Shown here: positions 36,640 through 57,651 of the stretch, one piece after another
How positions within the stretch are numbered: the stretch's first letter is position 1
How the letters are laid out: every line of letters begins with the position of its first letter
Assembly (NCBI GenBank): GCA_902586855.1
Contig: CACIIZ010000001.1
Span: forward strand, 54,326 to 118,325
Direction: 5' to 3'
From: an uncultured Alphaproteobacteria bacterium
Lineage (GTDB): Bacteria; Pseudomonadota; Alphaproteobacteria; Rhodobacterales; Rhodobacteraceae
Length of the DNA stretch: 64,000 bases
Program-made: the position numbers and the translations under genes
Notes under the pieces: generated by a model
Told to the model about the DNA's origin: nothing
Database searches by the model: none
Seen by the model: the letters and a program-made list of their open reading frames with translations, nothing else

Positions 36640-38784
36640 ATGCCAGAAAAAAAGTTAGTGCTTCTAGGGGGCGGTCATTCTCACATACTATTACTAAAAA
36701 AGTTAGGTATGCGGCCGGTAAGTGGGCTAATCACTTCGTTAGTCACACCCGATGCTACTATGATTTATACGGGAATGCTTCCTGGTTATATCATGGGTAA
36801 TTATGATCAGGATAATATTCAGGTAGATTTAGTTAAACTAGCAAACTATGCAAAATCAGCAATTATTTTTGACTCGGTTAAGAGCCTTAATTTATTAGAG
36901 AAAAGCTTGGGTCTAGAAGAACGAGGTCCCTTAAGTTTTGATATTCTTTCCATAGATATTGGGATAAATTACAGCCTACCTAAGATTAAAGGTTTTGCGA
37001 AATATGGTGTTCCTGTAAAACCATTCAAAGAGTTTTTGTCATCTTGGAAGACCTATCTAAATGGCTTGGAAAGTCGGAGTCATGTAGCTACCATTGCTTT
37101 AATAGGGGGGGGAGCTGCTGGGTGTGAATTGGCTTTAGCAATGAATATCAAGTTGAGAAACATAGGTTATGAGCCAATCATTACCCTAATTGATAGGGAA
37201 ATAATAGCTTCAAATCTGCCGTTGGGTGCACGAAAAAAGCTTGTCTCTTATTTGAAATTAAATAATATAATATTTAAGGAAAATTCCCAAATTTCACATA
37301 TATCTAATAAAAAAGTGCATTTTGTTAGTGGAGAAGAAATAGGATCTGATTTTATTGTAAGTACGGCTGGTGGACGGCCACATGCGTGGTTGGCTAATAC
37401 GAAACTCCGATTAGAAAACGGTTTTATTGAAACCTCCCAGAAGCTTCAGAGCATTTCACACAATTTTGTATTTGCTTCTGGGGATTGCGCAACTATTAAA
37501 AATTACCCACGACAAAAAGCTGGTGTTTTTGCGGTTCGAGCAGCACCTACCTTGTACAAAAATTTAGGGAAATATTTGAATTCTAAAGAATTGATAAATT
37601 TTACTCCGCAAAAAAGGTTTTTACAGGCGCTAACTCTTGAAAATAGAAATGCACTAGTTTTTAGGGGTGAAAACAGTATCAAAGGTTATATCCCTTGGGT
37701 TTATAAGGATTTTGTTGACAGATCCTTTGTCAAAAAATTTTCCATTCGCGCGTCAATGAACTCAGATAATAGTAATTTACACTCTGAGGCCCAGCAGCCA
37801 CTTTGTGGGGCCTGTGGGGCAAAAGTTGGCAATAATGTTTTAGAGAGAGTTCTAAGAAAGTTGCCTACTAGTGCGCCTGGAATGATTAATAAGATTGGAG
37901 ATGATGCCGCTATACTAAAAATGGATGGATCTCTGAAGGTTCTAACCACTGACCATCTGAGAAAGTTTTGTGAAGATCCATGGAAAATGGCAAGAATAAC
38001 AGCAATTCATTCCCTAGGTGACATATGGGCAATGGGAGCTGAGCCAGAGTCAGTACTGAGTCACATCACCATTCCTGAGGGTTCAACAGTATTTCAGGAA
38101 ACTTATCTTACAGAGATTATGGATGCTGCAAACGAAGTCTTTCTAACGGAGGGAGCTAGCATTGTTGGTGGGCACACTACCAAGGGTATTGAATTGGTAA
38201 TTGGTTTTACAATTTTAGGAAGTGTCACTACTAGGCCGGTAAGTACGAACGAAGCTTTACCCTCTGACAAAGTTATTTTAACGAAACCAATTGGCGTTGG
38301 AACTATATTAGCTGGTGAGATGCAAGGTTTATCGAGAGGAGTATGGATCAAAAGGGCGCATGATTGGATGATGTTGTCTCAGGGGAAGATAGCTAAAATT
38401 ATTAGGGAAAAGGCAACAGCAATGACTGATATTACGGGATTTGGTCTCGCTGGTCATCTAATGAAAATTTGTCAAGATTCAAATCTTGCAGCGAGATTGT
38501 ATATTGATGAATTACCCATATTGGAAGGAGCAGTAGAACTAACTGAGCTAGGTGTAAGGTCAACTCTTTTTGAGGAAAATCGGGATAATAACCCAGGGGT
38601 CAAATTTTCGACTGCACAATCCAAATGGCCACTACTTTTCGACCCACAAACTTCTGGTGGTTTGTTAGCATCCATCCCAGAGAAAGATGTCAAAGCTGTT
38701 TTGAGTAAACTAAAAAATCAGGGTTTTTCCTGTGCAATTGTGGGGGAACTTATATCTGGGAAACCAGGCATCGAAGCTGTTTAA
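36640..38784 (+). CDS. selD: fusion protein: FAD/NAD(P)-dependent pyridine-nucleotide-disulfide-type oxidoreductase (N) + selenide, water dikinase SelD (C)
   Basis: 714 aa. The N-terminal ~370 aa carry two Rossmann motifs (LVLLGGGHSH; IALIGGGAAGCELA). The C-terminal ~340 aa are a PurM/AIRS-fold SelD with the active-site loop PLCGACGAKVG (Cys-Gly-Ala-Lys in place of my recollection of E. coli Cys17...Lys20) and the GDDAAIL motif. Confidence 0.85.
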   Translation: MPEKKLVLLGGGHSHILLLKKLGMRPVSGLITSLVTPDATMIYTGMLPGYIMGNYDQDNIQVDLVKLANYAKSAIIFDSVKSLNLLEKSLGLEERGPLSFDILSIDIGINYSLPKIKGFAKYGVPVKPFKEFLSSWKTYLNGLESRSHVATIALIGGGAAGCELALAMNIKLRNIGYEPIITLIDREIIASNLPLGARKKLVSYLKLNNIIFKENSQISHISNKKVHFVSGEEIGSDFIVSTAGGRPHAWLANTKLRLENGFIETSQKLQSISHNFVFASGDCATIKNYPRQKAGVFAVRAAPTLYKNLGKYLNSKELINFTPQKRFLQALTLENRNALVFRGENSIKGYIPWVYKDFVDRSFVKKFSIRASMNSDNSNLHSEAQQPLCGACGAKVGNNVLERVLRKLPTSAPGMINKIGDDAAILKMDGSLKVLTTDHLRKFCEDPWKMARITAIHSLGDIWAMGAEPESVLSHITIPEGSTVFQETYLTEIMDAANEVFLTEGASIVGGHTTKGIELVIGFTILGSVTTRPVSTNEALPSDKVILTKPIGVGTILAGEMQGLSRGVWIKRAHDWMMLSQGKIAKIIREKATAMTDITGFGLAGHLMKICQDSNLAARLYIDELPILEGAVELTELGVRSTLFEENRDNNPGVKFSTAQSKWPLLFDPQTSGGLLASIPEKDVKAVLSKLKNQGFSCAIVGELISGKPGIEAV

Positions 38785-38791
38785 TTTCTTT

Positions 38792-39838
38792 CTATAAATT
38801 ATTGTCCAAAATGTTTGATGCTACCTCACTAACGCTCTTTTTGCTGCAGGGATCAATTTTAATTTCATGAATTTCGCCTGGGGACCTCTGTGTTTTAGAG
38901 TTTTTATATCTAGGATCATAATGATTTTTCATTAGGGATTTTGCGAGCAGATGAAATTGGTTTTTCTGGACAAATTCTTTCCACGTTGTAATTTGTTTTT
39001 TGCTATGAAAATTGCTCAAAAGGGAAATTTTTTTTTGCAGTATCTTTGGATGCTCATATAAATCTGGATATTCCCGTACAAGAAATTCAGCCCGATCCCT
39101 AATTGTTGAAACTAATTCTAAACGGGGAGCTGTTGTCATTTTTTTCCACAGACTAGGTGGTATTTTTAAAATGCCAATTTTGCTCGATTCTGCCTCTAAG
39201 AAAACTGAGGTTTTTTCGGAAAAAGTTTCTAGTATTGCTGCTATTTTGCTTTCGAATTCTTTTTGCGATGGCTGGCCCAATGATCGTGACCCAAAAATTG
39301 AACCTCTATGATTGGCCAGTTCTTCAAGGTCAATAACCTGTCCTCCCAGGTCATCAATTTTTTTTAAGACAGCGGTTTTTCCAGTTCCAGTATTGCCAGA
39401 GATCACTACCATTTTATGGTTGATTCGTTTTTGGTAAAGTCTCGTCACTACCAATTTTCTGTAAGATTTGTATCCTCCTGCTAGGATATGTATTCTCCAA
39501 CCTATTTCAGATAGGACTACACCTAGAGATCGGGATCTTTGCCCGCCTCTCCAGCAATATATTAGTGCTTTCCATTGGTTCCCTTTCTCAGCCAAGATCC
39601 CACTTAGATGCTTACTAATATTATCAGCTACAAATTTTGCACCAATTTTCTTGGCTTCAAACTTGCTTTCTTGCTTGTAAATTTTTCCTACAACTTCACG
39701 TTCATGGTCTGACAAAACGGGTAGATTAACTGCGCCAGGAATATGATCTTCGGTGTACTCGCTTGGAGACCTAACATCAATAATCGTGTCGAATCTCTCA
39801 ACCGTTGTATTAGCAATGCTGAAATTTTCTATCTTCAT
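38792..39838 (-). CDS. selU: tRNA 2-selenouridine synthase (rhodanese + P-loop)
   Basis: 348 aa with the rhodanese active-site loop YCWRGGQRS and P-loop SGNTGTGKT. Convergent with selD and 7 nt away. Confidence 0.85.
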   Translation of the reverse strand: MKIENFSIANTTVERFDTIIDVRSPSEYTEDHIPGAVNLPVLSDHEREVVGKIYKQESKFEAKKIGAKFVADNISKHLSGILAEKGNQWKALIYCWRGGQRSRSLGVVLSEIGWRIHILAGGYKSYRKLVVTRLYQKRINHKMVVISGNTGTGKTAVLKKIDDLGGQVIDLEELANHRGSIFGSRSLGQPSQKEFESKIAAILETFSEKTSVFLEAESSKIGILKIPPSLWKKMTTAPRLELVSTIRDRAEFLVREYPDLYEHPKILQKKISLLSNFHSKKQITTWKEFVQKNQFHLLAKSLMKNHYDPRYKNSKTQRSPGEIHEIKIDPCSKKSVSEVASNILDNNL

Positions 39839-39908
39839 TTAAATATCGTTAAAAAAGATGTTCTAGATTATGTAATTTTAATATGAGACTTATACTAGGA
39901 TTCGGACA

Positions 39909-40679
39909 ATGATTGAAAGTAAAAGAATTATGGGATTAAAAGGTAAGGTGGTCTTTATTTCTGGTGCTAGATCGGGCATCGGTCTTGCTACGGCCAGACT
40001 TTTTGCTAGTTCTGGAGCCAGTGTGGTTCTAGGTTGTCGTCGAAAAGGAGACTGTAAAGAAGTGATCAGAGGCATCAGATCCAAGGGAGGATCTGCCAAA
40101 GAAGTCCATTGTGATATTTCAGATCTGTCAAGTTTGCCACAACTAGCTAAGAATATTATGTCTGCTTGGGGGCGTTTGGATATAATGGTAAATAATGCCG
40201 CTACCATTACTCCAATGGCTCCCATCCCTCGGATAGATGTGGGGGAATTAGACAATTCTATAAGGATTAACGTAACGGCACATCTAGCTTTGATTTCTAA
40301 ATTTTGGAAGGAACTATCTGATAATAAAGGTTATGTGATAAATATCTTATCCGGTGCCTCAAAAACTCCACGTTATGGTTGGACTGCATACTGTCTTAGT
40401 AAAGCAGCCTTACATATGGTAACCAAACAGGTTTGTTTGGAAGGCGAGGAGATCGGCATTAAGAGTTTTGGTTTTGCACCTGGCTTTGTAAAAACAAAAA
40501 TGCAAAATGAAATTCGAGGCTCAAGGATAAATGAGATCGCTTTTTTGCCTGAGTCAGATATGATTAGTCCTGAGAAACCAGCAAGATGTATTCTTCTCTT
40601 GGCATCTGGTAGATATGATAAGTTTAATGGGAAATTTCTGGATATTAGAGATGAATTATTCAAAGATAGGCATGACTGA
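39909..40679 (+). CDS. SDR-family oxidoreductase
   Basis: 256 aa with ISGARSGIG (TGxxxGxG), NNAA and YCLSKAAL (YxxxK). An alternative start lies at 39930. Confidence 0.85.
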   Translation: MIESKRIMGLKGKVVFISGARSGIGLATARLFASSGASVVLGCRRKGDCKEVIRGIRSKGGSAKEVHCDISDLSSLPQLAKNIMSAWGRLDIMVNNAATITPMAPIPRIDVGELDNSIRINVTAHLALISKFWKELSDNKGYVINILSGASKTPRYGWTAYCLSKAALHMVTKQVCLEGEEIGIKSFGFAPGFVKTKMQNEIRGSRINEIAFLPESDMISPEKPARCILLLASGRYDKFNGKFLDIRDELFKDRHD

Positions 40680-40714
40680 AATTCTTAGATGAAAATTAAT
40701 GATTGGAAAAACTA

Positions 40715-41731
40715 ATGAATATAAAGAGAGTGGTGCTTGCAGAAAGACCAAAGGGAGAACCTACGATTGACAATTTTCGTTTTGAAGAAATCGATATCCC
40801 AAGATTACAGAACGGGGAGTTATTACTAAAGGTAAGATGGTTGTCCTTGGATCCCTATATGCGAGGCAGAATGGATGGAGCTCAATCTTATGCCGCCCCG
40901 GTCTCCATTGGGGAGCCAATGCAGGGTGAGTGTGTCGCCGAAGTTATCGATTCACGAAACCAAAAATTTACTACTGGTGAACTTGTGACTGGAAGGTTTG
41001 GATGGGTATCCCACGCAATATCCAATGGTGAAGAGTTAAGAAAAATTCCCAAATCTAATGTCCCTGAGCAAACAGCATTGGGTGTTTTGGGGATGCCTGG
41101 TCATACAGCCTGGGTCGGCTTGAACAAAATAGCAAAGGCTTTGTCCGGGGAAACAATAATTGTGTCAGCTGCCTCTGGCGCCGTTGGTAGTTTGGTAGGG
41201 CAGTTAGCGAAGAAAAAAGGCCTAAGAGTTATTGGAGTTGTTGGTAGCCAACAAAAGCATACTTATGTGATCGAGGAATTAGCATATGACGGTTGTATTA
41301 ACCACAACACAGTTTCTTCTGTAGGAGATTTCAGAGAGCTAGTTGCTTCGCATTGCCCGGAAGGAGTAGATGTCTATTTCGAAAATGTTGCAGGTATCAC
41401 TCTTGAAGCAGTCTTGCCTAACATGAATGATTTTGGACGAATAGCAGTCTGTGGTATGATTTCTTGGTATTCAGGACAGGGTTTGCAGAATGCGATGGCC
41501 TTCCCAAAATTCTGGAGAATGGTCCTAGTCAAAAGACTCAGAGCTAATGGTTTCATTATTTTTGATCATAAAGAATCGTTTCCAGAGTTTTGGAAAGAGG
41601 TTAGTCCACTTATTGAGAGTGGTGAGATAAAATATAAGGAAGATATTAGAAAAGGACTGGAAAGCGCACCTGACTCTTTTCTAGAGCTTTTAAAAGGAGG
41701 TAATTTTGGGAAAATGCTAGTGGAATTATGA
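40715..41731 (+). CDS. NADP-dependent oxidoreductase, MDR superfamily (YncB/CurA / alkenal-one reductase type)
   Basis: About 338 aa from the ATG at 40715 (the track TTG at 40703 is also possible). Cofactor motif AASGAVGSLVGQLAK. Confidence 0.85.
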   Translation: MNIKRVVLAERPKGEPTIDNFRFEEIDIPRLQNGELLLKVRWLSLDPYMRGRMDGAQSYAAPVSIGEPMQGECVAEVIDSRNQKFTTGELVTGRFGWVSHAISNGEELRKIPKSNVPEQTALGVLGMPGHTAWVGLNKIAKALSGETIIVSAASGAVGSLVGQLAKKKGLRVIGVVGSQQKHTYVIEELAYDGCINHNTVSSVGDFRELVASHCPEGVDVYFENVAGITLEAVLPNMNDFGRIAVCGMISWYSGQGLQNAMAFPKFWRMVLVKRLRANGFIIFDHKESFPEFWKEVSPLIESGEIKYKEDIRKGLESAPDSFLELLKGGNFGKMLVEL

Positions 41732-41743: not shown

Positions 41744-42781
41744 TTAAGCAAACTCAGGCATTACTTCTTCAATAAAAAGTTTGAGAGATTTTCGTTGCTC
41801 TTCTTGACCTAAGCCCATACTAGCATAATAGATGAATTCATCCACACCTAGACTTTCATAATCCTTTAATTTTTTAATAACTTCCTCAGGACTGCCAAAA
41901 AGTAGATTTTGGGCAAGCGTTTCTGGGTTATATTGATCTCTTCCTGCAAGTTCATTAAGTGGGATTTGCTTCGTAAATCCATTTTGAACATCACCAAGGT
42001 TTTTGAAAAGGTTCTCGAATTGTCCAAGAACTAACCGTATGGCCTTTAAGGCTTTTTCTTTGTCTTCTTCATTTGTATAAACGGCTGCATGTCTCATCAT
42101 TGCGAAGATGGGTCTAAAGTTTGATTGATTCGACTCAATCGCTTCTTCTAGTTGTTTTTTATAAAGTTCTGCCTCCGAAAATGGTCTGGTCAAGGGCCAT
42201 GACATGATGTTGCACTCGTTCTTGATAGCATAATCAAAGGTGATTGGTGATCTGGCCGCTACCCAGATCGGAGGATGCGGTTTTTGTATTGGTTTCGGAC
42301 AAGATGTGGATGCTGGAAATTGCCAATACTCACCATTATGCTCCACATCCCCTGACCATAACTGCTTTAACAAAGGTAGCATTTCTTGCATATACCTCCA
42401 GCCATCTTTCTGCTTCAAGCCTGGCTTCATCCGATCAAACTCTCGTTGATAGGCACCGGAACCAATTCCAAATTCCAACCTCCCTCCGCTAATTAGGTCT
42501 GTGAATGCAGCTTCCCCTGCCAAGTTAATAGGATGCCAATAAGCAGCATTAACCACTGCCGTTCCCAATCTTATTTTTTCTGTATGATTTGCCCACCAAG
42601 TCAATATTTGGAAAGGATTGGGTGCTATTGTCATTTCGATAGCATGATGTTCTGCAGCCCAAACGATGTTGAAGTTCCCCTGGTCAGCCATTGTTACCAT
42701 ATCGAGAGTATGTCTTTTTACGCTCTCCATATCAGTAGATGTGTCCATGCGTTCTAAATTGACAGCTAATTGAAACTTCAT
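41744..42781 (-). CDS. LLM-class (luciferase-like) flavin-dependent monooxygenase
   Basis: 345 aa, MKFQLAVNLE..., with typical LLM TIM-barrel sequence (AEHH, GRLEFGIGSG). GAGGAT SD. Last gene of the minus-strand operon. Confidence 0.85.
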   Translation of the reverse strand: MKFQLAVNLERMDTSTDMESVKRHTLDMVTMADQGNFNIVWAAEHHAIEMTIAPNPFQILTWWANHTEKIRLGTAVVNAAYWHPINLAGEAAFTDLISGGRLEFGIGSGAYQREFDRMKPGLKQKDGWRYMQEMLPLLKQLWSGDVEHNGEYWQFPASTSCPKPIQKPHPPIWVAARSPITFDYAIKNECNIMSWPLTRPFSEAELYKKQLEEAIESNQSNFRPIFAMMRHAAVYTNEEDKEKALKAIRLVLGQFENLFKNLGDVQNGFTKQIPLNELAGRDQYNPETLAQNLLFGSPEEVIKKLKDYESLGVDEFIYYASMGLGQEEQRKSLKLFIEEVMPEFA

Positions 42782-42857
42782 TTGTTGTGATCCTCTAAAA
42801 TCTATACTTAATAATTTAATGGTACAGAATTCTCTCTCTTCTTAAAACTTTTTCCAC

Positions 42858-43460
42858 TTACACACCAGCTGGATTTTCCACATTTCTGCCTAGTTTTTTT
42901 AGGTCAGAATACCTGTCACCGATCCGATGATGGGGTCTACCACCTGTTGCTGCACCAAGTGCAGCAATCAATTCATCACCCGCTGGGGCATCTGGAATAG
43001 AAAATTGGACCGTCAGATAATGGGATCTCCGTCCGGTGTCGCTCTTGTCCATTAGTGGGATGTAAACTGGTGAGTTTGCTGGGCCTCGGGTATTAGTGAA
43101 GCCCAGATAAGATTTTGCTTGAACTGCCTCACGTAAAAAATTACCAAATTTCAGTGTGTGTATCAATGCCGAGGCATGCTCAATCTCAGAGTCTACGCCT
43201 GCCACGGCCGCCTTCCCATAGGCTTCTATCTCTGTGCCAGAACCTATTATCGAAATAAGCTTTTCTGTCAGAAGCTTTCCCAAAAAAGGAGAAATTCGAT
43301 TTATTTCAGGATATAGATCTTCCACAAAACCTTGCCCAATCCAAGGATTTTTTACGACTGCTGCAACACCTACTAACTTAAGTTCTTGGCTCGCTTGTTT
43401 TCCTCCTTCTACATTTATTATTTCTTCATATGCAATTATTTTTCTTATATCTGGTATCAT
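42858..43460 (-). CDS. amino-acid-synthesis (AA_synth, DUF-type) family protein of unknown biochemical function
   Basis: 200 aa with a GAGGGAG SD. The N-terminus IRKIIAYEEIINVEGGK and the overall size resemble the AA_synth family as I recall it; this needs HMM confirmation. Confidence 0.55.
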   Translation of the reverse strand: MIPDIRKIIAYEEIINVEGGKQASQELKLVGVAAVVKNPWIGQGFVEDLYPEINRISPFLGKLLTEKLISIIGSGTEIEAYGKAAVAGVDSEIEHASALIHTLKFGNFLREAVQAKSYLGFTNTRGPANSPVYIPLMDKSDTGRRSHYLTVQFSIPDAPAGDELIAALGAATGGRPHHRIGDRYSDLKKLGRNVENPAGV

Positions 43461-43486
43461 ATCGCTCCCTCTTATTTCTAGATAAG

Positions 43487-45577
43487 CTAAAAGACTTTTT
43501 TTACAGTGCCTTCCGTTTCATTTCCTTGATAAATTCCAAATCTCCCATGGTTATACTCTTCGCAATAGCGCTCAATCATTATTCTTTCTGCCAGATTTTT
43601 AATTTTGTGTAACGGTATCTTTTCTAGATTCAGGCTGACTGTTCTCTTATTACCTTTTCCTGAAAATTTCCCATGGTAGAAGATCATATGGGCATTGAGC
43701 TCTTGATCTTCATACACCGAATATAGGAAATCAAGATTAAATATTAGATTCAAGTCTTTTAGATGCTGTTTTAATCCACTTAGACTTTTGTTACTAGTTG
43801 GGGCTTTTGGCAATGACAAGGAGCCATTCTTATCCTTAATAAACAGAATGTGACGATCGCTTTCCAAGATCGCTCCGACTCCTGTATCACTTCCTTCATT
43901 AACCATTTTTACTAGAGAGTGCTCTAACCCTATAGAAAAATAATCACCACGAAAATAGCCAAGAGGATCACCAGATTGATGGAAAAACTCTTCAACATGA
44001 CCAATCATTACAGCGTGATCCCCTATTTCTTGGAAGTTAGTTTTTTGGCATACAAAGTTGGACAAGCACGAGTCCAATAGGGGTAGATTCCCTGTCCCCT
44101 TTTTCCATTTAGTTAAATCAAATTTGTCAGATCTTTGAGATGAGAATAATCCTGCTAAAGAACGCTGTTTTTTACTCAAAACATTGATTACAAAATGGTT
44201 GCTATTTCTAAAGATCTCAAAACTTTGAGCGGTCTTGGCGATGCAAACCAATAACATAGGCGGATCCAGAGAAACAGACGAAAAAGAATTTGCAGTGAAA
44301 CCTCTGGGGGTGCCATCATCTTGTGTTGTAGTCACAACTGTAACGCCCGTGGCAAAAGTTCCAAAGGCAGATCTAAGGTCATTTTTGCCTTCTTCAGTTA
44401 TTTGATTAAATTCATTTTTATAAAAGTCTTCTGCTTTTGTAAGTCCCAATTCTGGAGGATGAGAGAATTTAGGTTGAGGAAATCTACTAAAGTTAAGTGG
44501 ATTTCCCGCTATTCGCCATGGTCTAGATTCTGGATTTGCATGTTTAATTTCCTTTATCATTGATCTTTTGGCAACATGAGGGTCCTTAAATATATCTTTT
44601 GCTGAATTAAGAGTACCAAATGGTACTAATCCGCCTAAAAGAGATTTCAATTCTGATTTTGTTTTTGTCAAAGTCCAGCATCCCACTATTTCATTTAATG
44701 CTTGAGAGTTTTTTTGCCTGCTCGTAATTGAAGAGTATTTTGGATCAGAGGATAGCTCTGGTTTTTCCATTATTTCAGTTAAAATTTTCCAAAATGAATC
44801 ATCTACTATTCCTAGAGCTATAAAACCATCTCTGGCCTTGAAGATCCCAAAAGGTACTAGCAAAGGGTGTCCATTCCCTTCTGGCTTGGGGATAGAACCA
44901 TCCAGGTCGTGTTGATAAATTATTCTTTCGCAAAGACTGATTACGGCATCATACATTGCCAGATCTATGAATTGTCCCTTTCCCGATTTTTCCGACTCTC
45001 TTACTGCAGCTATGATACCAAAAGCCATCATAAGACCTGAGAATATATCTCCAACACCTGGCCCTACTTTTGTAGGAGTGCTTTGGCTGGGTCCTGTTAT
45101 ACTCATAAGTCCACCCATTGCTTGGGCGACGACATCGTAGGATGGCCAATCCATATAAGGGCTTTCCCCAGAAATTGGATTACCAAATCCACTTATGGCA
45201 GCATATACTAATTTTTTATTTACACCTTTTAGATTTTCATATCCCAATCCCATTTTTTCCATGACTCCAGGTCTGAAATTTTCAACCAAAATATCAGCTG
45301 TCTTGACAAGGTTTATGAGACTTTCTTTACCCTGAGGAGTTTTTAAGTCTAGCATTAAGCTTTTCTTGTTTCGATTGAGACTTACAAAATATCCAGACCA
45401 TTTCTTTTTCTTGTCTTCTTTTCTAAAAGGGCCGGTTCCTCTACTGGTATCACCGGAGGGGGGCTCAATTTTAATTACTTCTGCACCATGATCAGCTAAC
45501 ATCATTGTACAATAGGGACCTGAAAGCATTCGTGTTAAATCTAAAACCCGAAGGCCTGATAATAGTCCTTGAGTCAT
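43487..45577 (-). CDS. three-domain fusion: family III (CaiB/BaiF) CoA-transferase + flavin reductase (FMN-binding split barrel) + ~140-aa C-terminal domain of uncertain (Nudix-fold-like?) type
   Basis: About 696 aa from the ATG at 45577, which lies 1 nt after the upstream stop (TAGAATG). N-terminus: LRVLDLTRMLSGPYCTMMLADHGAEVIKIE. Middle: FGTFATGVTVVTT...PRGFTANSFSSVSLDPPMLLVCI. C-terminus: VGAILESDRHILFIKDKNGSLSLPK... Confidence 0.8.
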   Translation of the reverse strand: MTQGLLSGLRVLDLTRMLSGPYCTMMLADHGAEVIKIEPPSGDTSRGTGPFRKEDKKKKWSGYFVSLNRNKKSLMLDLKTPQGKESLINLVKTADILVENFRPGVMEKMGLGYENLKGVNKKLVYAAISGFGNPISGESPYMDWPSYDVVAQAMGGLMSITGPSQSTPTKVGPGVGDIFSGLMMAFGIIAAVRESEKSGKGQFIDLAMYDAVISLCERIIYQHDLDGSIPKPEGNGHPLLVPFGIFKARDGFIALGIVDDSFWKILTEIMEKPELSSDPKYSSITSRQKNSQALNEIVGCWTLTKTKSELKSLLGGLVPFGTLNSAKDIFKDPHVAKRSMIKEIKHANPESRPWRIAGNPLNFSRFPQPKFSHPPELGLTKAEDFYKNEFNQITEEGKNDLRSAFGTFATGVTVVTTTQDDGTPRGFTANSFSSVSLDPPMLLVCIAKTAQSFEIFRNSNHFVINVLSKKQRSLAGLFSSQRSDKFDLTKWKKGTGNLPLLDSCLSNFVCQKTNFQEIGDHAVMIGHVEEFFHQSGDPLGYFRGDYFSIGLEHSLVKMVNEGSDTGVGAILESDRHILFIKDKNGSLSLPKAPTSNKSLSGLKQHLKDLNLIFNLDFLYSVYEDQELNAHMIFYHGKFSGKGNKRTVSLNLEKIPLHKIKNLAERIMIERYCEEYNHGRFGIYQGNETEGTVKKVF

Positions 45578-45578
45578 T

Positions 45579-46397
45579 CTAGGTAGACCCAACTTTAATG
45601 AATTGTTGTAAAAACGGTTTGATGATAGATCCGAATTGATTTGGATCCTCCACCAATCCCATATGCTTTAAATTTCTCATAATTAAAAGCTGGCTCTGGT
45701 TGATTTCATTTGCTATCATTTTACTCATTTCCGGTCCATTGCCGTAATCTTGATCTGCTGTAACCACTAAAGTTGGACAGTTGATTGGTGGTTGAGGTTT
45801 TATAATCTCTTCTAAATCATAAGCCAAGATCTTATAGATTTTTGGGTATATATTAGGATCATTGGCAACAATCCATTTTCTAACTTTATTAATTATTCTA
45901 GGATTATCTTTTTCAAATTTTTCACTGAACCATCTAGTAATTGCATCTGACACAGTGGCTTTAGGTCCAAATCTTTGGGATAGTGTAACTCTGGCCTCTA
46001 TTGAGGATTGCTGCTCTTTGGTTCGAGAGTGGGGGGAGTTTATTATTATTAGACCTTCCACTAATTCAGGAAAATCCTGCGCAAATCGTCTGACTATCAT
46101 TCCGCCTAAGGAAAATCCTGCCAAGATTATTTGTTTGAAGTTACAGTAATCCATCAACTCCTTTATTTGCAAAGAAAACATTTTTAGGGAGGGGGTTTTT
46201 TCGGGTAAGATGCTTCCTCCATGTCCACAAAGATCGTAGGTCACTATGGTAAATTCTTCTTCTAGATTTTTGGGTAGCCATTGCCACATTTCCCTATTCA
46301 AACCTAGACCATGAACAAAAATAAGAATTTTTTGTGGAGACAATCCCCTTATTTCAAACTTGGTTCCTTTGGTAGTAATAGATGATATTTTTGTCAC
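45579..46397 (-). CDS. alpha/beta-fold hydrolase
   Basis: 272 aa with a GTG start and AGGTG SD. HGLGLN oxyanion region and nucleophile elbow GFSLGG. Confidence 0.8.
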   Translation of the reverse strand: MTKISSITTKGTKFEIRGLSPQKILIFVHGLGLNREMWQWLPKNLEEEFTIVTYDLCGHGGSILPEKTPSLKMFSLQIKELMDYCNFKQIILAGFSLGGMIVRRFAQDFPELVEGLIIINSPHSRTKEQQSSIEARVTLSQRFGPKATVSDAITRWFSEKFEKDNPRIINKVRKWIVANDPNIYPKIYKILAYDLEEIIKPQPPINCPTLVVTADQDYGNGPEMSKMIANEINQSQLLIMRNLKHMGLVEDPNQFGSIIKPFLQQFIKVGST

Positions 46398-46404
46398 TTC
46401 ACAC

Positions 46405-46797
46405 CTAGGAAAATTTTTGAGGCTTGTAGGCTATTACTTCTATTTCTACCTTCACATCTACTAACAACTCATTTACTAAGGCAGACCTAGCCGGAGGGTC
46501 ATCAGGGAAGTATTCACTATAGATTTTATTAAAACCTGGGAAATCATTTTTGTCCTTAAGCCATACCATTGATTTGACCACGTCATCCAGTGTGCAATTT
46601 GCCAAGGAAAGGGTGTTTCTAATTTCTTCAATTACAGCTCTGGTTTGTTCTTCTATTCTTCCGCTCGTCATTACCGCTCCGTTTTTCATGGGGACTTGTC
46701 CTGTGCAAAAAATGAAATCACCGGCTTGTACAGCTCGTGAAAGAGATAACTCTCTTCCATTAATTATAAAGGGCTCCCCCAAGACTTTTTTTTTCAT
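46405..46797 (-). CDS. RidA/YjgF-family enamine/imine deaminase-like protein
   Basis: About 130 aa, YjgF-like (GQVP..., ...VEIEVIA). The ATG at 46797 has an AAGGTG SD; the track GTG at 46806 is an alternative. Confidence 0.8.
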   Translation of the reverse strand: MKKKVLGEPFIINGRELSLSRAVQAGDFIFCTGQVPMKNGAVMTSGRIEEQTRAVIEEIRNTLSLANCTLDDVVKSMVWLKDKNDFPGFNKIYSEYFPDDPPARSALVNELLVDVKVEIEVIAYKPQKFS

Positions 46798-46869
46798 ATC
46801 GTTCACCTTCTAAACGGTTCTACGCTGTTAAAAGAAGTTTATTTCTAAAATCCTCAAAAAAAGCGTACA

Positions 46870-46889
46870 ATTCTCAAACATGGGAGAAT
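46870..46889. promoter_or_regulatory. perfect inverted repeat ATTCTC-N8-GAGAAT in the divergent promoter region (candidate operator)
   Basis: Lies in the 131-bp spacer between the RidA operon (minus strand) and the aldehyde dehydrogenase operon (plus strand). Each half-site is followed by the direct repeat TCAAACA (46874-46880 and 46889-46895). Confidence 0.3.
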
Positions 46890-46928
46890 CAAACACTCTC
46901 CTACCACCACTATATTGGAGGTTCAGGC

Positions 46929-48410
46929 ATGACTGAAGTCAAAAAATATCAAATGCTTATTAATGGAAGCTGGACTAGCGGAATGGATAAAAAGTTTTTT
47001 GATAGTGTGAATCCGTATACAGGTCAGGTGTGGTGTAGGGTACCTGAGGCAAGTTCCAAAGATGTAGATGCTGCAGTGAGGGCTGCACATAAGGCTTTTA
47101 CAACCGGAGCTTGGGCTAAAATGACCCCAACCCAGAGAGGAGTTTGTTTAAGAAGGCTCGCAGATTTACTTTCTGAAACGTCAGAGCCTTTAGGTAAAAT
47201 AGAAACCATTGATACTGGGAAAATGCTTAAGGAAACGCGATGGCAGGCAAAGTATATTGCAGAGTTTTTTCACTTCTACGCTGGGTGCGCCGACAAAATT
47301 AGTGGGGAAACTTTGCCAATAGATAAACCTGACCTGGTTGTCTTCACGGAAAGGGAACCATTGGGGGTGGTTGCTGCAGTTGTCCCATGGAATTCTCAAT
47401 TATTCTTAGTTGCAGTTAAATTAGGACCTGCTCTTGCAGCTGGAAATACTGTGGTGCTTAAGGCTTCGGAGCATGCATCTGCAGCAATGTTAGAGTTTGG
47501 TAAACTTATTGAAAAGGCAGGATTTCCAGCTGGAGTTGTAAATATTATTACTGGTCACGGCGACCCGTGTGGAAGGGAATTGACATCCCATCCTTTGGTT
47601 TCGCGTATTTCCTTTACTGGGGGACCAAGGTCAGCACAAAGTATTATAAGAAATTCTTCTGAGAACTTTGCAGAAGTATCACTTGAATTAGGAGGTAAAT
47701 CACCTTTCATAGTTTTTGATGATGCAAATTTAGAAAGTGCTGTGAACGGATCCATTGCTGGAATTTTTGGTGCTACAGGTCAAAGCTGTGTAGCAGGGTC
47801 AAGATTATATTTGCACGAAAAAATTGCTGATGAATTTCTGGAAAAAATGTTACGAATTGTTCAAACCATTAATTTAGGTGATCCCCTTGAGGAGAAAACT
47901 CAAATGGGACCCTTATGCACGATGGGACAAATAGAAAATATTGAAACTGAATTAAGAGAAGCCCAATCTCAAGGTGGCGAGCTTTTATGTGGGGGTGGTA
48001 GACCTGAAAATTTAGAAGGTCATTTTTTTCAACCTACTATAATTTCTTGCCCCGACCAGTCCTTAAAAATTGTGGACACTGAGCTTTTTGGCCCTGTGTT
48101 GAGCGTATTAACTTTCCGAGAGGAAGAGGAGGCAATCAATCTTGCCAACGATACGAAGCATGGGCTGGCTGCTGGTATATTTAGCGAAAATAGTGCGCGA
48201 TCTATGCGAGTTGCGAAGTCGGTTAGGGCTGGTATAGTATGGGTAAACACGTATAGGGTAGTATCGCCCATAGCGCAGTTTGGGGGCTTTAAAGGTTCCG
48301 GTTATGGACGGGAAAGTGGTTTTCAAGCCATGTATGACTATACGCGTCCAAAAACCATCTGGTTGAATACATCAAATGAGCCAATGAGTAATCCTTTTGT
48401 AATGCGCTAA
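46929..48410 (+). CDS. NAD(P)-dependent aldehyde dehydrogenase
   Basis: 493 aa with ELGGKSP and catalytic Cys context GQSCVAGSR. GGAGG SD. Confidence 0.9.
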   Translation: MTEVKKYQMLINGSWTSGMDKKFFDSVNPYTGQVWCRVPEASSKDVDAAVRAAHKAFTTGAWAKMTPTQRGVCLRRLADLLSETSEPLGKIETIDTGKMLKETRWQAKYIAEFFHFYAGCADKISGETLPIDKPDLVVFTEREPLGVVAAVVPWNSQLFLVAVKLGPALAAGNTVVLKASEHASAAMLEFGKLIEKAGFPAGVVNIITGHGDPCGRELTSHPLVSRISFTGGPRSAQSIIRNSSENFAEVSLELGGKSPFIVFDDANLESAVNGSIAGIFGATGQSCVAGSRLYLHEKIADEFLEKMLRIVQTINLGDPLEEKTQMGPLCTMGQIENIETELREAQSQGGELLCGGGRPENLEGHFFQPTIISCPDQSLKIVDTELFGPVLSVLTFREEEEAINLANDTKHGLAAGIFSENSARSMRVAKSVRAGIVWVNTYRVVSPIAQFGGFKGSGYGRESGFQAMYDYTRPKTIWLNTSNEPMSNPFVMR

Positions 48411-48448: not shown

Positions 48449-49252
48449 GTGACCCATGGTATAGAAGTAAAAAAGTCAGGAAAAGTACTAGAAGTTTGTC
48501 TCGATAGACCAAAGGTTAATGCGATTGATGTAAAAATGAGTCAAGAATTAGGCAAAGCTTTTGCTGAACTGAGAGATAATAATGACTTGTGGGTAGGGAT
48601 CTTAACAGCTCAAGGAGACAAGATTTTTTCAGCAGGTTGGGACCTTAAAGCTCTAAACTCTGGGGAAATGTCTTTAGAAAATTGGTGGGAAACTTCAGAT
48701 TATGGAGATGGAGGTTTTGCTGGTTTAACTGAAAACTGGGATTTGAATAAGCCAGTCATTGGTGCTTTAAATGGCTTGGTAATAGGGGGTGGTTTTGAAT
48801 TGGCACTAGGCTGTGATCTTTTAATTGCAGCTGAACATGTTGAATTTGGTTTGCCTGAGATGCCTCTCGGTATAGTGCCGGATGCAGGTGCTCTTCAACG
48901 CCTGCCACGAAGAATACCCTATAACATAGCCATGGAAATGTTCTTGTTGGGGCGTAGAATGTCTGCTGCTGAGGCAAAGCACTATGGTCTTATAAATAAA
49001 ATAGTAAAATCTGAAAATCTGTTAGATGAAGCTCGCGAGTGGGCGAGTCAGATCGCCTCGTCAGCTCCTTTGGCCATGCAAAGTGTGAAAGAAGTGTTGA
49101 GAGCAATAGAATGTCATCCATTAGAGTCGGCTTTTTCCAAGATGCGAAAAGATGACCTAGAAACTTATAAAAAAATGCTGAGTTCTAAGGATGCAGAAGA
49201 AGGTATAGCGGCGTTTGTTGAGCGGCGAGCCCCCAAGTTTAAGGGTGAGTGA
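48449..49252 (+). CDS. enoyl-CoA hydratase/isomerase (crotonase) family protein, CaiD-like
   Basis: 267 aa with a GTG start and AAGGAGAAAG SD. Crotonase motifs: FSAGWDLK and GGGFELALGCDL. Confidence 0.85.
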   Translation: MTHGIEVKKSGKVLEVCLDRPKVNAIDVKMSQELGKAFAELRDNNDLWVGILTAQGDKIFSAGWDLKALNSGEMSLENWWETSDYGDGGFAGLTENWDLNKPVIGALNGLVIGGGFELALGCDLLIAAEHVEFGLPEMPLGIVPDAGALQRLPRRIPYNIAMEMFLLGRRMSAAEAKHYGLINKIVKSENLLDEAREWASQIASSAPLAMQSVKEVLRAIECHPLESAFSKMRKDDLETYKKMLSSKDAEEGIAAFVERRAPKFKGE

Positions 49253-50199
49253 TGAAGCTAATTGATCTAAGTAGCGTAGAGAGGGTTTGTAGCATTGGAG
49301 GTGGTCCAATAGGGGCTGGTTGGGCAGCCTTTTTCTTATCGAAGGGTCTTTCCGTAAAGGCTTATTTACATTCAGAAAGAGAGGAAGACAGCTTTCGGTC
49401 AATGATTGACACAGCCTGGATCTCGTTAGAGAAATTAACTGATCTAGTCAATGTCAACCTAGATTTAATACAAGTAAGCACAGACCTAGACGATGCTGTT
49501 CAAGATGCCGACTTCATTCAAGAAAGTGCCCCAGAAATTTTATCCTTAAAACAAGATCTTTATAATCATTTAGGAAAAATTGTTCGCAGTGACGTTGTGA
49601 TTTGTTCCTCCACTTCCGGTTTGACAATGTCGGAAATCCAGGCGCATTGTCAAACAGCTGAGAGAACGGTAGTTGCTCATCCATTCAACCCACCATATTT
49701 ACTACCGTTGGTAGAAATAGTGGGAGGAAAGAAGACCAATCCAGAGGCGGTTGACTGGGCGAAAAACTTTTATGAACGTATCGGTAAAGTTCCTTTAGTC
49801 ATGAACAAAGAAATTCCTGGCTTTATTGCCACAAGACTACAAGAAGCTTTGTGGAGGGAGGCATTACACATGGTAGTTAATGAAGAGGCAACTCCAGAGC
49901 AAATAGACAAAGCTCTGATTAATGGTCCTGGCCCCAGACTGGCAATTCAGGGGCAATGTCTTGCATTTCATGTTGCTTGTGGAGAAGGAGGTATGGCCAC
50001 TAACTTAGATCAATTTGGACCCGCTTTAAAACTACCTTGGACAAGATTGCATGCTCCTAAATTGACGAAGAAATTAAGAGACTCAATGGTTTTAGGCTGT
50101 AATGATATGACCAAAGACCAGGACTTTCAAAGCCTTGCCCTTGAACGGGATAGGAAGATAGTGGAGATTTTAAAAGTACAAAAAACAAATGCTTCTTAA
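49252..50199 (+). CDS. 3-hydroxyacyl-CoA-dehydrogenase-fold NAD enzyme, L-carnitine dehydrogenase-like
   Basis: About 315 aa. The N-terminus IGGGPIGAGWAAFFLSKGLSV resembles the LcdH / L-gulonate 3-dehydrogenase subgroup (GxGxIGxxWA). A BKACE gene follows directly. TGATG overlap with the upstream gene. Confidence 0.65.
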   Translation: MKLIDLSSVERVCSIGGGPIGAGWAAFFLSKGLSVKAYLHSEREEDSFRSMIDTAWISLEKLTDLVNVNLDLIQVSTDLDDAVQDADFIQESAPEILSLKQDLYNHLGKIVRSDVVICSSTSGLTMSEIQAHCQTAERTVVAHPFNPPYLLPLVEIVGGKKTNPEAVDWAKNFYERIGKVPLVMNKEIPGFIATRLQEALWREALHMVVNEEATPEQIDKALINGPGPRLAIQGQCLAFHVACGEGGMATNLDQFGPALKLPWTRLHAPKLTKKLRDSMVLGCNDMTKDQDFQSLALERDRKIVEILKVQKTNAS

Positions 50200-50232
50200 T
50201 TTGCTGAGATTAAATTGAATAGGGAGGTTGGC

Positions 50233-51120
50233 ATGAACTTTGAAGTGGTTATTACATGTGCGGTTACAGGTGCTGGAGACACGGTAGGCAAGAGTGATAA
50301 GGTTCCAATTACCCCTAAAGAAATAGCAAATGAAGCATTATCTGCTGCCGAAGCTGGAGCCACGTCAGTGCATTTACATGTTAGAGACCCTGAAACTGGG
50401 AAAGGTTCAAGAGATCCTAAGCTTTTCAAAGAAACTATCGATAGACTACGTGACAATAAACAAGACGTAATAATTAATCTTACAGCTGGGATGGGTGGTG
50501 ATTGGGTTGTTAACCCCAACAACCTAATTGAACCGGGACCTGGTACAGATATGATTAATGCTGAGGAAAGGTTGGCACATGTTAAGGAATGTTTGCCAGA
50601 GATTTGTTCTATAGATTGTGGAACTATGAATTTTGGAAACGATAACGAGATTTATATTTCAACTCCGCCATTTTTGAGGCAGATGGCACAATTAACTCAA
50701 GAGTGGGGTGTGAAACCTGAGCTAGAGGTTTTTGATCTCGGGCATATCCGTTTTGCTAAGGAAATGATTAAAGAGGGGCTGGTTGACGAGCCTCCTTTAT
50801 TTCAAATTTGTTTAGGAATTCCTTGGGGAGCTGAACAATCTGTTGATACGATGAAAATTATGAAAGATCATTTGCCGGCAAACTGTTTTTGGGCAGGATT
50901 TGGTATTTCCCGTATGCAAATGCCTATGGTAGCCGCTGCCGTGACTTTAGGAGGAAATGTTCGGGTGGGACTAGAGGACAATTTATACCTAAAAAAAGGA
51001 ATACTGGCTTCGAATGCAGATCTGGTTATTAATGCTAAAAACATTGTTGAACTTATGGGTGGTAGAGTTCTAACCCCAGAGGAAGCAAGGAAAAAGTTTC
51101 AACTGAAAAAGCAAGCCTAG
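50233..51120 (+). CDS. beta-keto acid cleavage enzyme (BKACE; 3-keto-5-aminohexanoate cleavage family, DUF849)
   Basis: About 295 aa from the ATG at 50233. ITCAVTGAGDT and SVHLHVRDPETG are typical of BKACE TIM barrels. Confidence 0.8.
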   Translation: MNFEVVITCAVTGAGDTVGKSDKVPITPKEIANEALSAAEAGATSVHLHVRDPETGKGSRDPKLFKETIDRLRDNKQDVIINLTAGMGGDWVVNPNNLIEPGPGTDMINAEERLAHVKECLPEICSIDCGTMNFGNDNEIYISTPPFLRQMAQLTQEWGVKPELEVFDLGHIRFAKEMIKEGLVDEPPLFQICLGIPWGAEQSVDTMKIMKDHLPANCFWAGFGISRMQMPMVAAAVTLGGNVRVGLEDNLYLKKGILASNADLVINAKNIVELMGGRVLTPEEARKKFQLKKQA

Positions 51121-57543: not shown

Positions 57544-57563
57544 TTCTAAATAATCTTTATTGA

Positions 57564-57593
57564 GGGGGCAGATTTTTTTGCCCCCTATTTTTT
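57564..57593 (+). terminator. rho-independent terminator/attenuator after the SBP gene
   Basis: GGGGGCA-gatttttt-TGCCCCC followed by TATTTTTT. Confidence 0.75.
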
Positions 57594-57596
57594 AAT

Positions 57597-57626
57597 GAAT
57601 AAGTAAGATAATAAGAAAACTTATTC
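57597..57626 (+). terminator. second AT-rich hairpin between the SBP and permease genes
   Basis: GAATAAGT-N14-ACTTATTC, a perfect 8-bp stem. Function is unclear (RNA processing or stability, or an operator). Confidence 0.25.
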
Positions 57627-57651
57627 GCTAATATGCTTTGGAATATTTTTA

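Follow-up and report, generated by a model that had tools for sequence, protein, structure and literature searches.

The closest described relative of the locus analysed here is the cluster for catabolism of trigonelline (N-methylnicotinate), tgnABCDEF, which was reportedly defined in Acinetobacter baylyi ADP1 by Perchat and colleagues in 2018 (PNAS 115:E4358). Clusters that we call tgn-type by composition, gene order and genus are present in S. meliloti (pSym), A. baumannii and Leisingera (plasmid) with the order AA_synth-hydrolase-reductase-LLM-ALDH (LLM, luciferase-like flavin-dependent oxygenase; ALDH, aldehyde dehydrogenase), followed downstream by an annotated SSADH in S. meliloti and by a second ALDH ORF in A. 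baumannii. TgnF is a PF06684 protein that is reported to stimulate TgnE-dependent oxidation of succinate semialdehyde. A further cluster, the pAtC58-type cluster of Agrobacterium fabrum C58, is to our knowledge uncharacterised; it has the order reductase-ALDH-LLM-hydrolase-CMD-NIPSNAP-AA_synth and lies beside ProXVW. The route from gamma-butyrobetaine and L-carnitine to glycine betaine involves CaiB/CaiD-type steps, a carnitine dehydrogenase and BKACE, and is represented by the cdh genes in Pseudomonas. The S. meliloti version of this pathway is said to have been described by Bazire and colleagues in 2019; carnitine-dehydrogenase-like enzymes act on the free 3-hydroxy acid. Finally, the homarine hom operon of marine Alpha- and Gammaproteobacteria serves N-methylpyridinium carboxylate catabolism, and its authors propose two paired proteins for supplying flavin and activating oxygen, together with an aldehyde dehydrogenase (Ferrer-Gonzalez et al. 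2026, PMC13236597). It differs from the present locus in having HomA with FAD-binding motifs, HomB, and a peptidase, HomC, and its description names neither an LLM nor a PF06684 protein or CoA-transferase (PMC13236597). Hom-like genes share an operon with the RidA-hydrolase-AA_synth genes in loci L077-L081.

The window (the whole stretch of 64,000 nucleotides that was analysed) has five minus-strand ORFs between 41744 and 46806, encoding a RidA-family protein (46405-46806), a PcaD-like alpha/beta hydrolase (45579-46397), a fusion protein (43487-45577), a TgnF-like AA_synth/DUF1185 protein (42858-43460) and a TgnB-related LLM (41744-42781). The earlier note on this DNA had described these as five packed genes with gaps of 7, 1, 26 and 76 nt, and both the ORF coordinates and the gaps were verified; likewise, Pfam searches recovered each of the predicted domains intact (Ribonuc_L-PSP, Abhydrolase_1, CoA_transf_3 and Flavin_Reduct in the fusion, AA_synth, and Bac_luciferase). 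The fusion was assigned to start at an ATG rather than at the listed TTG at 45592 because the TTG ORF would overlap the hydrolase, and for RidA the ATG at 46797 is more likely than the GTG at 46806 because the latter falls within the Shine-Dalgarno (SD) sequence. SD-like motifs precede the three starts read (GAAGG for RidA, AGGTG for the hydrolase, AGAGGA for the LLM), in agreement with the SDs proposed before. Between 41500 and 47100, promoter- and terminator-like sites were no more frequent than the shuffled expectation, which is consistent with, but does not prove, a single transcript for the five genes. The divergent intergenic region (46807-46928), in which no sigma-70-like match was reported, is common to the minus-strand genes and a plus-strand operon and may act as a shared control region for both. 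Based on NCBIfam, the plus-strand operon encodes, after an ALDH (46929-48410), a CaiD-like enoyl-CoA hydratase (ECH; 48449-49252), a carnitine-dehydrogenase-like HCDH (49249-50199), BKACE (50215-51120), an acyl-CoA dehydrogenase (ACAD; 51154-52314), an ADP-forming acyl-CoA synthetase (ACS; 52245-54407, with an uncertain start) and another CoA-transferase of family III (54554-55726). On the same strand there follows, again by NCBIfam, an Opp/Nik-type ABC importer (55897-61212) comprising a binding protein of the SBP_bac_5 type, two permeases and probably an ATPase (59506-61212).

Relatives of the LLM are encoded on at least 527 genome stretches. L002-L004, L007 and L008 have the same five genes in this order, and L005 and L006 have part of it. 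Outside the window the arrangement is seen in the closest relatives alone (LLM identity 85-91%), and it is derived. Dozens of genomes belonging to several orders carry the gene set itself in rearranged yet tightly linked form, as do two plasmids. Among 83 related loci, the LLM is most often accompanied by the hydrolase (59 loci), then by ALDH (46), ECH, HCDH and ACAD (35 each) and BKACE (33), while AA_synth (26), ACS (24, in each case beside ACAD), the fusion (18) and RidA (18) are rarer. A chance juxtaposition of five genes with no common function, which the restricted distribution of the exact order might suggest, is extremely improbable; synteny refutes it. In most relatives the LLM gene lies inside the ALDH-ECH-HCDH-BKACE-ACAD-ACS operon; in Roseovarius Pro17, P. 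marina pW43B and ~30 other loci it is flanked by ALDH and ECH. We therefore regard the two divergent operons as one conserved catabolic unit, and the previously suspected link to CoA chemistry holds. We suggest, with somewhat better than even confidence, that the five genes make up half of a catabolic unit of about twelve genes, itself a marine form (M-type) of the tgn cluster that has diverged as a paralogue.

As in the tgn cluster, the locus combines a two-component system of an LLM oxygenase and an HpaC-type reductase bearing a NUDIX-fold tail with an adjacent ALDH, a PF06684 helper, an alpha/beta hydrolase in the operon and a binding-protein importer. The earlier note knew of no characterised pathway composed in this way; LLM, flavin reductase, hydrolase, PF06684 protein and ALDH are, however, the composition of tgn, with clear homologues, and on sequence grounds the gene set is not an orphan but a relative of the published cluster. 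Similarly, the AA_synth protein had been considered to lack an established biochemical role, while its homologue TgnF has a published role with TgnE. The window protein (PF06684, 1.5e-62) is 68% and 64% identical to the cluster members of S. meliloti and A. baumannii, respectively, as expected for a TgnF-type helper, and PDB entries 2qtp and 3byq are homologues. The ALDH is 54-55% identical to the LLM-adjacent ALDHs of S. meliloti, A. baumannii and Leisingera, which share 69-73% identity with each other, but 31-36% identical to the SSADH type, the values for the second ALDHs of these clusters being 31-34%; its sequence is thus clearly closer to that of the ALDH in the TgnC position than to the SSADH type. 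In NCBIfam it is BADH-like with 476 bits (cut-off 669). No second ALDH (TgnE/SSADH) was found in the window cluster or in fusion-bearing M-type loci.

The LLM (Bac_luciferase, 2.5e-52; no NCBIfam equivalog) also differs from its tgn counterparts. Tgn-type LLMs from Hyphomicrobiales, Moraxellales and Rhodobacterales are 70-73% identical to each other and M-type LLMs from Alpha- and Gammaproteobacteria 64-87%, but identity between the two types is 38-43%; the window LLM shares 41% identity with the S. meliloti and A. baumannii proteins and 38% with that of Leisingera, and so does not group with these references as a TgnB orthologue. Judged from these values, it is a TgnB homologue that belongs to a separate orthologous group, and because identity is only 38-43% its reaction may differ in kind. 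The closest LLM outside the M-type is that of the pAtC58-type cluster (47-52%), which shares the core families and a transporter of the betaine type but lacks CoA-transferase, ECH, HCDH, BKACE and ACAD and has instead CMD-family, NIPSNAP and 2-hydroxyacid dehydrogenase genes. We also note that in gammaproteobacterial and SAR116 loci an LLM 70-75% identical to that of the window occurs without any CoA genes, next to genes for an Xsc-like TPP enzyme, a class II aldolase and Rieske oxygenases; the CoA module is therefore not obligatory for the function of the LLM.

The separateness of the LLM groups bears directly on whether the operon is simply a trigonelline operon, with trigonelline itself as the substrate and the M-type as a marine form of equal function in which the ring-opened product leaves via CoA esters rather than succinate semialdehyde. 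This would agree with the presence of homologues of TgnA, TgnB, TgnC, TgnF and the tgn-cluster binding protein, with the JGI name of TgnD on one hydrolase homologue and some fusions, and with the common occurrence of trigonelline as a marine metabolite; moreover, release of methylamine or a sarcosine-type product would suit the neighbouring methylamine, sarcosine and C1 genes. Yet tgn-type LLMs remain 70-73% identical across three orders while the M-type is 38-43% identical to all of them, the hydrolase is unrelated (21-24%) and SSADH is missing. Furthermore, the roseobacter group itself has a tgn-type cluster of standard make-up, carried by Leisingera plasmids, and the two types are therefore paralogues. 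A plain trigonelline operon is thus unlikely. Other differences from tgn are the fusion of the reductase to a CoA-transferase, the addition of RidA, the linkage of M-type LLMs to ECH, HCDH, BKACE, ACAD and ACS, and a DJ-1/AraC regulator in place of GntR.

The fusion protein consists of a family III CoA-transferase domain (aa 6-378, 44444-45562; CoA_transf_3, 1e-119), a TgnA-like flavin reductase domain (aa 406-549, 43931-44362; Flavin_Reduct, 1.3e-37) and a C-terminal domain (aa 550-696, 43490-43930), all on the minus strand. The top NCBIfam match of the first domain is succinyl-CoA:mesaconate CoA-transferase with 405 bits (cut-off 700), far ahead of CaiB with 136 bits, and the domain thus resembles the mesaconate/dicarboxylate type rather than the CaiB type. 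The Asp in 'PSYDVVAQAMGG' aligns with an Asp-containing motif of formyl-CoA transferase (Frc) and YfdE, in which we take this Asp to be the catalytic residue, and the domain appears to be catalytically competent. With its free-standing counterparts in the clusters of S. meliloti, A. baumannii and pAtC58, the reductase domain shares 45-48% identity, and reductase and tail together are 37% identical to those of S. meliloti and A. baumannii; as in TgnA-type reductases, Flavin_Reduct is followed by a C-terminal domain, and PDB 3rh7 (SMa0793) matches aa 399-694 (3e-54). The earlier assignment of NUDIX to the fusion stands for the fold: an AF2 model of the last ~147 residues (pLDDT 85) retrieved in Foldseek the C-domain of 3rh7 as well as the NUDIX hydrolase 3cng (TM 0.71), and in S. 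meliloti the homologous part is the C-terminal half of the stand-alone reductase (31% identity). It does not stand for the function, as neither a Pfam NUDIX match nor, by regex, the pattern GX5EX7REUXEEXGU, which we take to be the Nudix box, was found in the tail; it is a NUDIX-fold domain by its model and probably not a hydrolase. LLM oxygenase and HpaC-type reductase domains are encoded together, as in two-component monooxygenases, and the domain within the fusion is the likely reductase partner of the LLM, as had been predicted. A physical tie of the monooxygenase to CoA chemistry had also been put forward, but the fusion does not define the cluster: only 18 of the 83 loci have the fusion, the reductase being free-standing in L061, L055 and L036 and missing from the neighbourhood in many others, and therefore this tie is a lineage feature and not a requirement. 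In Hwanghaeella (L061), the slot beside the free reductase holds an acyl-CoA-dehydrogenase-family protein, again CoA chemistry.

The hydrolase (Abhydrolase_1, 1.6e-23) has a GFSLGG nucleophile motif and scores highest in NCBIfam against 3-oxoadipate enol-lactonase (132 bits, cut-off 256). The tgn-position hydrolases of S. meliloti, A. baumannii and Leisingera share 52-55% identity among themselves and 21-24% with the window protein, which is thus not of the TgnD type; the closest hydrolase is that of pAtC58 (33%). The homologue P0283 bears the JGI name of TgnD, a name that oddly also appears on some fusions. RidA (PF01042, 2.4e-28) scores below the RutC and TIGR00004 cut-offs and carries 'PPARSA', presumably the Arg-containing motif of deaminase-competent RidA proteins. 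The Rut system (RutA-F) follows the same logic, in which ring opening by an LLM is combined with a flavin reductase, RidA and an alpha/beta hydrolase for reactive enamine products, and with all four families in one operon the genes could be read as RutA (LLM), RutF (reductase), RutC (RidA) and RutD (hydrolase) of a pyrimidine ring-opening pathway. The NCBIfam scores of 59 (RutC), 67 (RutD) and 87 bits (RutF) are, however, far below the cut-offs of 169, 238 and 255, the LLM is of a different subfamily with no RutA model match listed, no RutB- or RutE-type gene is among the annotated genes, and tgn-type proteins match much more strongly. A Rut-like pathway is highly improbable and effectively refuted by these scores.

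The plus-strand genes resemble the carnitine route in families and logical order (CoA activation, ACAD, CaiD-like hydratase, carnitine-dehydrogenase-like HCDH, BKACE) but all score below the equivalog cut-offs: CaiD 292 of 500 bits, L-carnitine dehydrogenase 289 of 414 and Kce 246 of 382. Identity between HCDH and the products of plasmid genes annotated as carnitine 3-dehydrogenase is 34-40%; accordingly, neither HCDH nor the hydratase qualifies as a bona fide carnitine dehydrogenase or CaiD, and they are relatives of carnitine enzymes that probably act on an analogue. The PGAP name of the P. marina ECH is 'carnitinyl-CoA dehydratase'. Nineteen loci have a DJ-1/AraC regulator, a type that controls carnitine and betaine genes. 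An SBP_bac_5 protein also occurs in a Roseovarius cluster (L034), while other M-type clusters have SBP_bac_8 or, in L078-type loci, OpuAC binding proteins; the SBP_bac_8 proteins of P. marina and Roseovarius share 33-35% identity with the binding protein of the S. meliloti tgn cluster (E ~1e-56). We considered a carnitine/gamma-butyrobetaine-type pathway in which LLM and hydrolase act as Baeyer-Villiger monooxygenase and esterase on a ketone, e.g. a decarboxylated 3-keto acid, and the likeness to tgn reflects shared families only. The best scores of ECH, HCDH and BKACE, the P. marina name, the regulator and the constancy of the LLM and lactonase-like hydrolase as a pair (59/83) would fit. But such a ketone route needs neither a TgnF homologue (64-68%) nor a TgnC-position ALDH (54-55%), the CoA-transferase is of the dicarboxylate rather than the CaiB type, and the carnitine-enzyme scores and the HCDH identity fall short as above. 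We regard this pathway as quite improbable. The locus further differs from the carnitine route in that an LLM and tgn-like genes sit within the operon and no hot-dog thioesterase is among the annotated genes.

On balance, and although the low LLM identity to the tgn type, the unrelated hydrolase and the loci without CoA genes count against it, we lean towards oxygenolytic opening of a trigonelline-related N-methylated betaine followed by CoA-dependent, carnitine-like processing. The comparisons show homology, intact domains, synteny and distinct orthologous groups; the substrate, every chemical step and the step order we infer from them. The TgnA-like reductase domain, with its non-catalytic NUDIX-fold tail, would reduce free flavin with NAD(P)H, and the TgnB-like LLM would open or cleave the positively charged betaine with the help of reduced flavin and O2, yielding an aldehyde or lactol. 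The TgnC-like ALDH, aided by the TgnF-like AA_synth protein, would oxidise this product to an acid, the hydrolase and RidA would take off an N-formyl or enamine/imine nitrogen function, and the mesaconate-type CoA-transferase domain would capture the carbon skeleton as a CoA thioester, a departure from the Acinetobacter route, whose end point is succinate semialdehyde. ACAD, the CaiD-like hydratase, HCDH, BKACE and the ADP-forming CoA synthetase would then lead to acetoacetate and a short acyl-CoA. As a guess, a 2-alkylidene-succinate intermediate (compare MFMS of tgn) may be CoA-activated and decarboxylated to 4-(N-substituted)-butenoyl-CoA. Because the latter is an analogue of crotonobetainyl-CoA, it would explain the carnitine-like enzymes and, only on paper, reconcile the carnitine-like ECH and HCDH with the dicarboxylate-like CoA-transferase.

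The window also encodes Tmm, Tdm, GmaS-like, Mgs-like, Sox/Mgd-like, FolD and Fhs proteins, and a BHMT-like gene adjoins the LLM gene in L012; together with the DJ-1/AraC regulators and OpuAC binding proteins, these give a betaine context that favours our reading. We speculate, tentatively and at less than even confidence, that M-type loci encode an undescribed, widespread marine pathway in which an abundant N-methylated pyridinium or betaine is opened by TgnAB-like enzymes, the ring-opened dicarboxylate is directly captured in CoA thioester form by the reductase-fused transferase, and carnitine-like enzymes and BKACE yield acetoacetate and an N-methylglycine-type acyl-CoA. If true, pyridinium ring cleavage would be tied to the sarcosine/methylamine C1 network of the same genomic island.

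The five minus-strand genes at 41744-46806 are all present in the ORF listing at the places described in the earlier note, and the gaps reported there of 7, 1, 26 and 76 nt match the listing when the fusion starts at the ATG at 45577. Pfam likewise agrees with the families assigned on first reading to all five proteins, namely RidA, an alpha/beta hydrolase, CoA_transf_3 and Flavin_Reduct in the fusion, AA_synth (PF06684), and Bac_luciferase in the LLM monooxygenase. SD-like motifs lie ahead of all three starts that were read among the five genes. Because the listed GTG of the RidA gene falls inside the SD, we prefer the ATG at 46797, which is probably the start. Promoter- and terminator-like sites within the block were not above shuffled expectation. 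In NCBIfam, no equivalog cut-off was reached by any of the five proteins or by the genes tested (ALDH to permeases) of the divergent plus-strand operon that begins at 46929. Comparison of gene neighborhoods revealed that the gene set recurs across related genomes, and on this synteny a chance juxtaposition of the five genes was rejected. We conclude that the original observation is sound and that the operon is real.

The suggestion that this composition is without precedent proved wrong. As a reference for the published trigonelline (tgn) pathway, we used the clusters of A. baumannii, S. meliloti and Leisingera as stand-ins for the tgn locus of A. baylyi ADP1. The gene order AA_synth-hydrolase-reductase (~310 aa)-LLM-ALDH is common to S. 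meliloti, A. baumannii and a Leisingera caerulea plasmid; a GntR regulator is present in the S. meliloti and Leisingera clusters, and downstream lies an annotated SSADH in S. meliloti and a second ALDH ORF in A. baumannii. The window proteins are homologous to those of these clusters, with identities to S. meliloti and A. baumannii of 64-68% for AA_synth, 54-55% for ALDH, 45-48% for the reductase domain, 41% for the LLM, and only 21-24% for the hydrolase. The view that AA_synth has no established role is similarly outdated, as stimulation of the TgnE-dependent oxidation of succinate semialdehyde is reported for TgnF, a homologue in PF06684; TgnB is a luciferase-like enzyme. In the work of Perchat et al., TgnC reportedly oxidises the lactol product, and the acid so formed is said to be split by a hydrolase (TgnD by its JGI name), with release of CO2, methylamine, formate and succinate semialdehyde. 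Based on these sequence comparisons, we regard the window system as a variant of the tgn kind. Literature searches returned no relevant published pathway joining BKACE, LLM and carnitine-type genes, and nothing relevant on tgn in roseobacters.

A tblastn search of plasmids with the window LLM returned 330 records, which fall into three classes by identity. Among tgn-type LLMs, mutual identity is 70-73% over three orders, and the marine group to which the window LLM belongs (M-type; compared here for the window, Roseovarius, P. marina, one alphaproteobacterial single-cell genome, SAR116 and two Gammaproteobacteria) shares 64-87%; identity between the two types is 38-43%, and the LLM of pAtC58 falls in between, with 47-52% identity to the M-type. 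Because a tgn-type cluster also occurs within the roseobacter group, we regard the M-type as a lineage of paralogues, more than a marine orthologue of tgn. In the same search, some rhizobial replicons (CP007068.1, NC_014918.1, NZ_CP016452.1) gave two LLM matches each, which could be two LLM paralogues.

The fusion is genuine and occurs widely: over 120 database clusters, mainly from Rhodobacteraceae, Rhodobiaceae and Kiloniellaceae, span 99-100% of its length with identities of at least 52%. By alignment, its CoA-transferase domain keeps the Asp-containing active-site motif of Frc and YfdE, the Asp being the catalytic residue. The best NCBIfam score of this domain is to succinyl-CoA:mesaconate CoA-transferase (405 bits, below the cut-off), with CaiB far lower, which suggests that the substrate is a dicarboxylate. 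PDB 3rh7, the 321-residue SMa0793 of S. meliloti, matches residues 399-694 of the fusion (3e-54). The C-terminal 147 residues are confidently modeled (pLDDT 85) with a NUDIX fold; this tail has neither a Pfam NUDIX match nor a Nudix box, and because the box is absent a catalytic NUDIX domain was rejected. The most likely role of the tail is in binding or regulation. Some fusions and one hydrolase homologue carry the JGI label (E)-2-((N-methylformamido)methylene)succinate hydrolase, the TgnD name. Three fusions so named (P0022, P0048 and P0060) have no hydrolase domain; the name was probably inherited from the neighboring gene or a reference entry and could propagate further. Protein-database names gave only weak hints to a tgn link.

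In the divergent operon, the best NCBIfam matches of ECH, HCDH and BKACE are CaiD, L-carnitine dehydrogenase and Kce, respectively, all under the cut-off. HCDH is only 34-40% identical to annotated carnitine 3-dehydrogenases, for which reason a genuine carnitine dehydrogenase was rejected, and we read the CoA module as serving an analogue of carnitine or crotonobetaine rather than carnitine itself. The Rut pathway was rejected on scores that are far too low, and identity with the hom operon because the protein families differ. In addition to the fusion, two more genes for family III CoA-transferases lie at 54554-55726 and 62355-63479, and the window holds three CaiB-type domains inside 20 kb; an EamA transporter gene lies at 61326-62222.

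We suggest the following sequence of steps. Reduced flavin would be supplied by the reductase domain, and the LLM would open or cleave the substrate in the fashion of TgnB. The ALDH, with AA_synth as helper, would yield an acid, N-formyl and enamine/imine functions would be handled by the hydrolase and RidA, the mesaconate-type CoA-transferase would activate the acid, and ACAD, ECH, HCDH, BKACE and ACS would complete the route. Provided that the acid is similar to MFMS, which is a 2-alkylidene-succinate, its activation with CoA and decarboxylation at the conjugated carboxyl would produce a 4-(N-substituted)-butenoyl-CoA, an analogue of crotonobetainyl-CoA; such an intermediate would explain both the carnitine-like enzymes and the missing SSADH.

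The genome scan yielded 80 loci with an LLM at least 70% identical, the best 80 of 527 relatives, and gene counts were obtained by clustering all ORFs of 83 loci. The hydrolase is present in 59 of the 83 and ALDH in 46, followed by ECH, HCDH and ACAD (35 each), BKACE (33), AA_synth (26), ACS (24), a DJ-1/AraC regulator (19), and the fusion and RidA (18 each). In Roseovarius sp. Pro17, hydrolase-fusion-AA_synth is divergent from an ALDH-LLM-ECH-HCDH-BKACE-ABC-ACAD operon, and this arrangement is shared by P. marina pW43B, where RidA, a GlxA-type regulator and an ADP-forming CoA ligase are also present. Cultured carriers of the cluster include Roseovarius sp. Pro17, Parasedimentitalea marina W43, Roseovarius conchicola, Aliiroseovarius sp. 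YM-037, Hwanghaeella grinnelliae Gri0909 and Aminobacter sp. SR38. In the gene maps, the LLM usually sits between ALDH and ECH; the order of the window, in which it ends the minus-strand operon, occurs only there and in the nearest relatives. A free reductase is found in some loci (L036, L055 and L061). In L061 (Hwanghaeella grinnelliae, 4036-7073) it has 319 aa and lies beside a 632-aa protein whose acyl-CoA dehydrogenase domains come after an unassigned N-terminal stretch of ~240 residues; this ACAD-family protein fills the slot held by the CoA-transferase in Rhodobacteraceae.

In gammaproteobacterial loci and some from SAR116, the partners of the LLM and hydrolase are Rieske proteins, a class II aldolase and an Xsc-like TPP enzyme, and CoA genes are absent. 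In the gammaproteobacterial loci among L009-L076 (e.g. L015, 7335-14276) the LLM is 72-75% identical, the Xsc-like enzyme scores 430 bits, under the sulfoacetaldehyde acetyltransferase cut-off, and further partners are a GbcA-like Rieske oxygenase, a 533-aa Rieske protein, DUF805 and TPR proteins. In L012 (7557-9841) and L035, the LLM adjoins genes for a homocysteine S-methyltransferase (BHMT-like), an MFS transporter and RidA, a further betaine-type context. The fusion is absent from L077-L081, from alphaproteobacterial single-cell genomes. There (e.g. L078, 1701-7078, minus strand), the genes after RidA-hydrolase-AA_synth on the same strand encode a second ALDH of 471 aa, a Peptidase_M19 protein, a protein of 564 aa that has no Pfam match, and a DUF3726 protein; by composition, these downstream genes resemble the published homarine genes homABCD.

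The type of binding protein varies by locus: the window and L034 have SBP_bac_5, L078-type loci have OpuAC, and P. marina and Roseovarius have SBP_bac_8, which shows 33-35% identity to the binding protein of the S. meliloti tgn cluster. The region 4858-31644 is a methylated-amine utilisation island, in which gene names are inferred from domain calls: FolD (4858-5802), formate-THF ligase (Fhs, 5774-7468), sarcosine-oxidase/N-methylglutamate-dehydrogenase-like (Sox/Mgd-like) alpha and beta subunits (8064-11039 and 11299-12555), a DJ-1/AraC regulator (12656-13618), a GS-like GmaS candidate (16596-18077), MgsABC-like GATase and Glu_synthase domains (18136-21320), a Tmm-like FMO (23242-24582), an OpuAC-type ABC system (24623-28758), and a Tdm-like DUF1989+GCV_T protein (29257-31644). 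The transporters and this island point to an N-methylated, positively charged substrate. The left end (555-3305) holds inositol-type genes for a PfkB+DUF2090 and a KduI/IolB protein. Between island and operon (36640-41731) lie genes for a 714-aa and a 348-aa protein and putative SDR-like and quinone-oxidoreductase-like genes, all four kept in the closest relatives only.

N-methylated osmolytes, among them glycine betaine, trigonelline, homarine and carnitine, carry large fluxes of C and N from phytoplankton to bacteria. The pathways for several of these were discovered only recently, that for homarine in 2026 (PMC13236597). The M-type LLM matches at least 527 genome stretches in one representative-per-species collection, from Rhodobacteraceae, SAR116, other Alphaproteobacteria and many marine Gammaproteobacteria; it is strongly conserved and belongs to no named family. 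Annotations as "trigonelline degradation", already in JGI names, should not be transferred to this group. Its paralogy with the trigonelline system narrows the candidate substrates and assays to a short list that is concrete and testable, and the PF06684 and NUDIX-tailed reductase families gain a second context.
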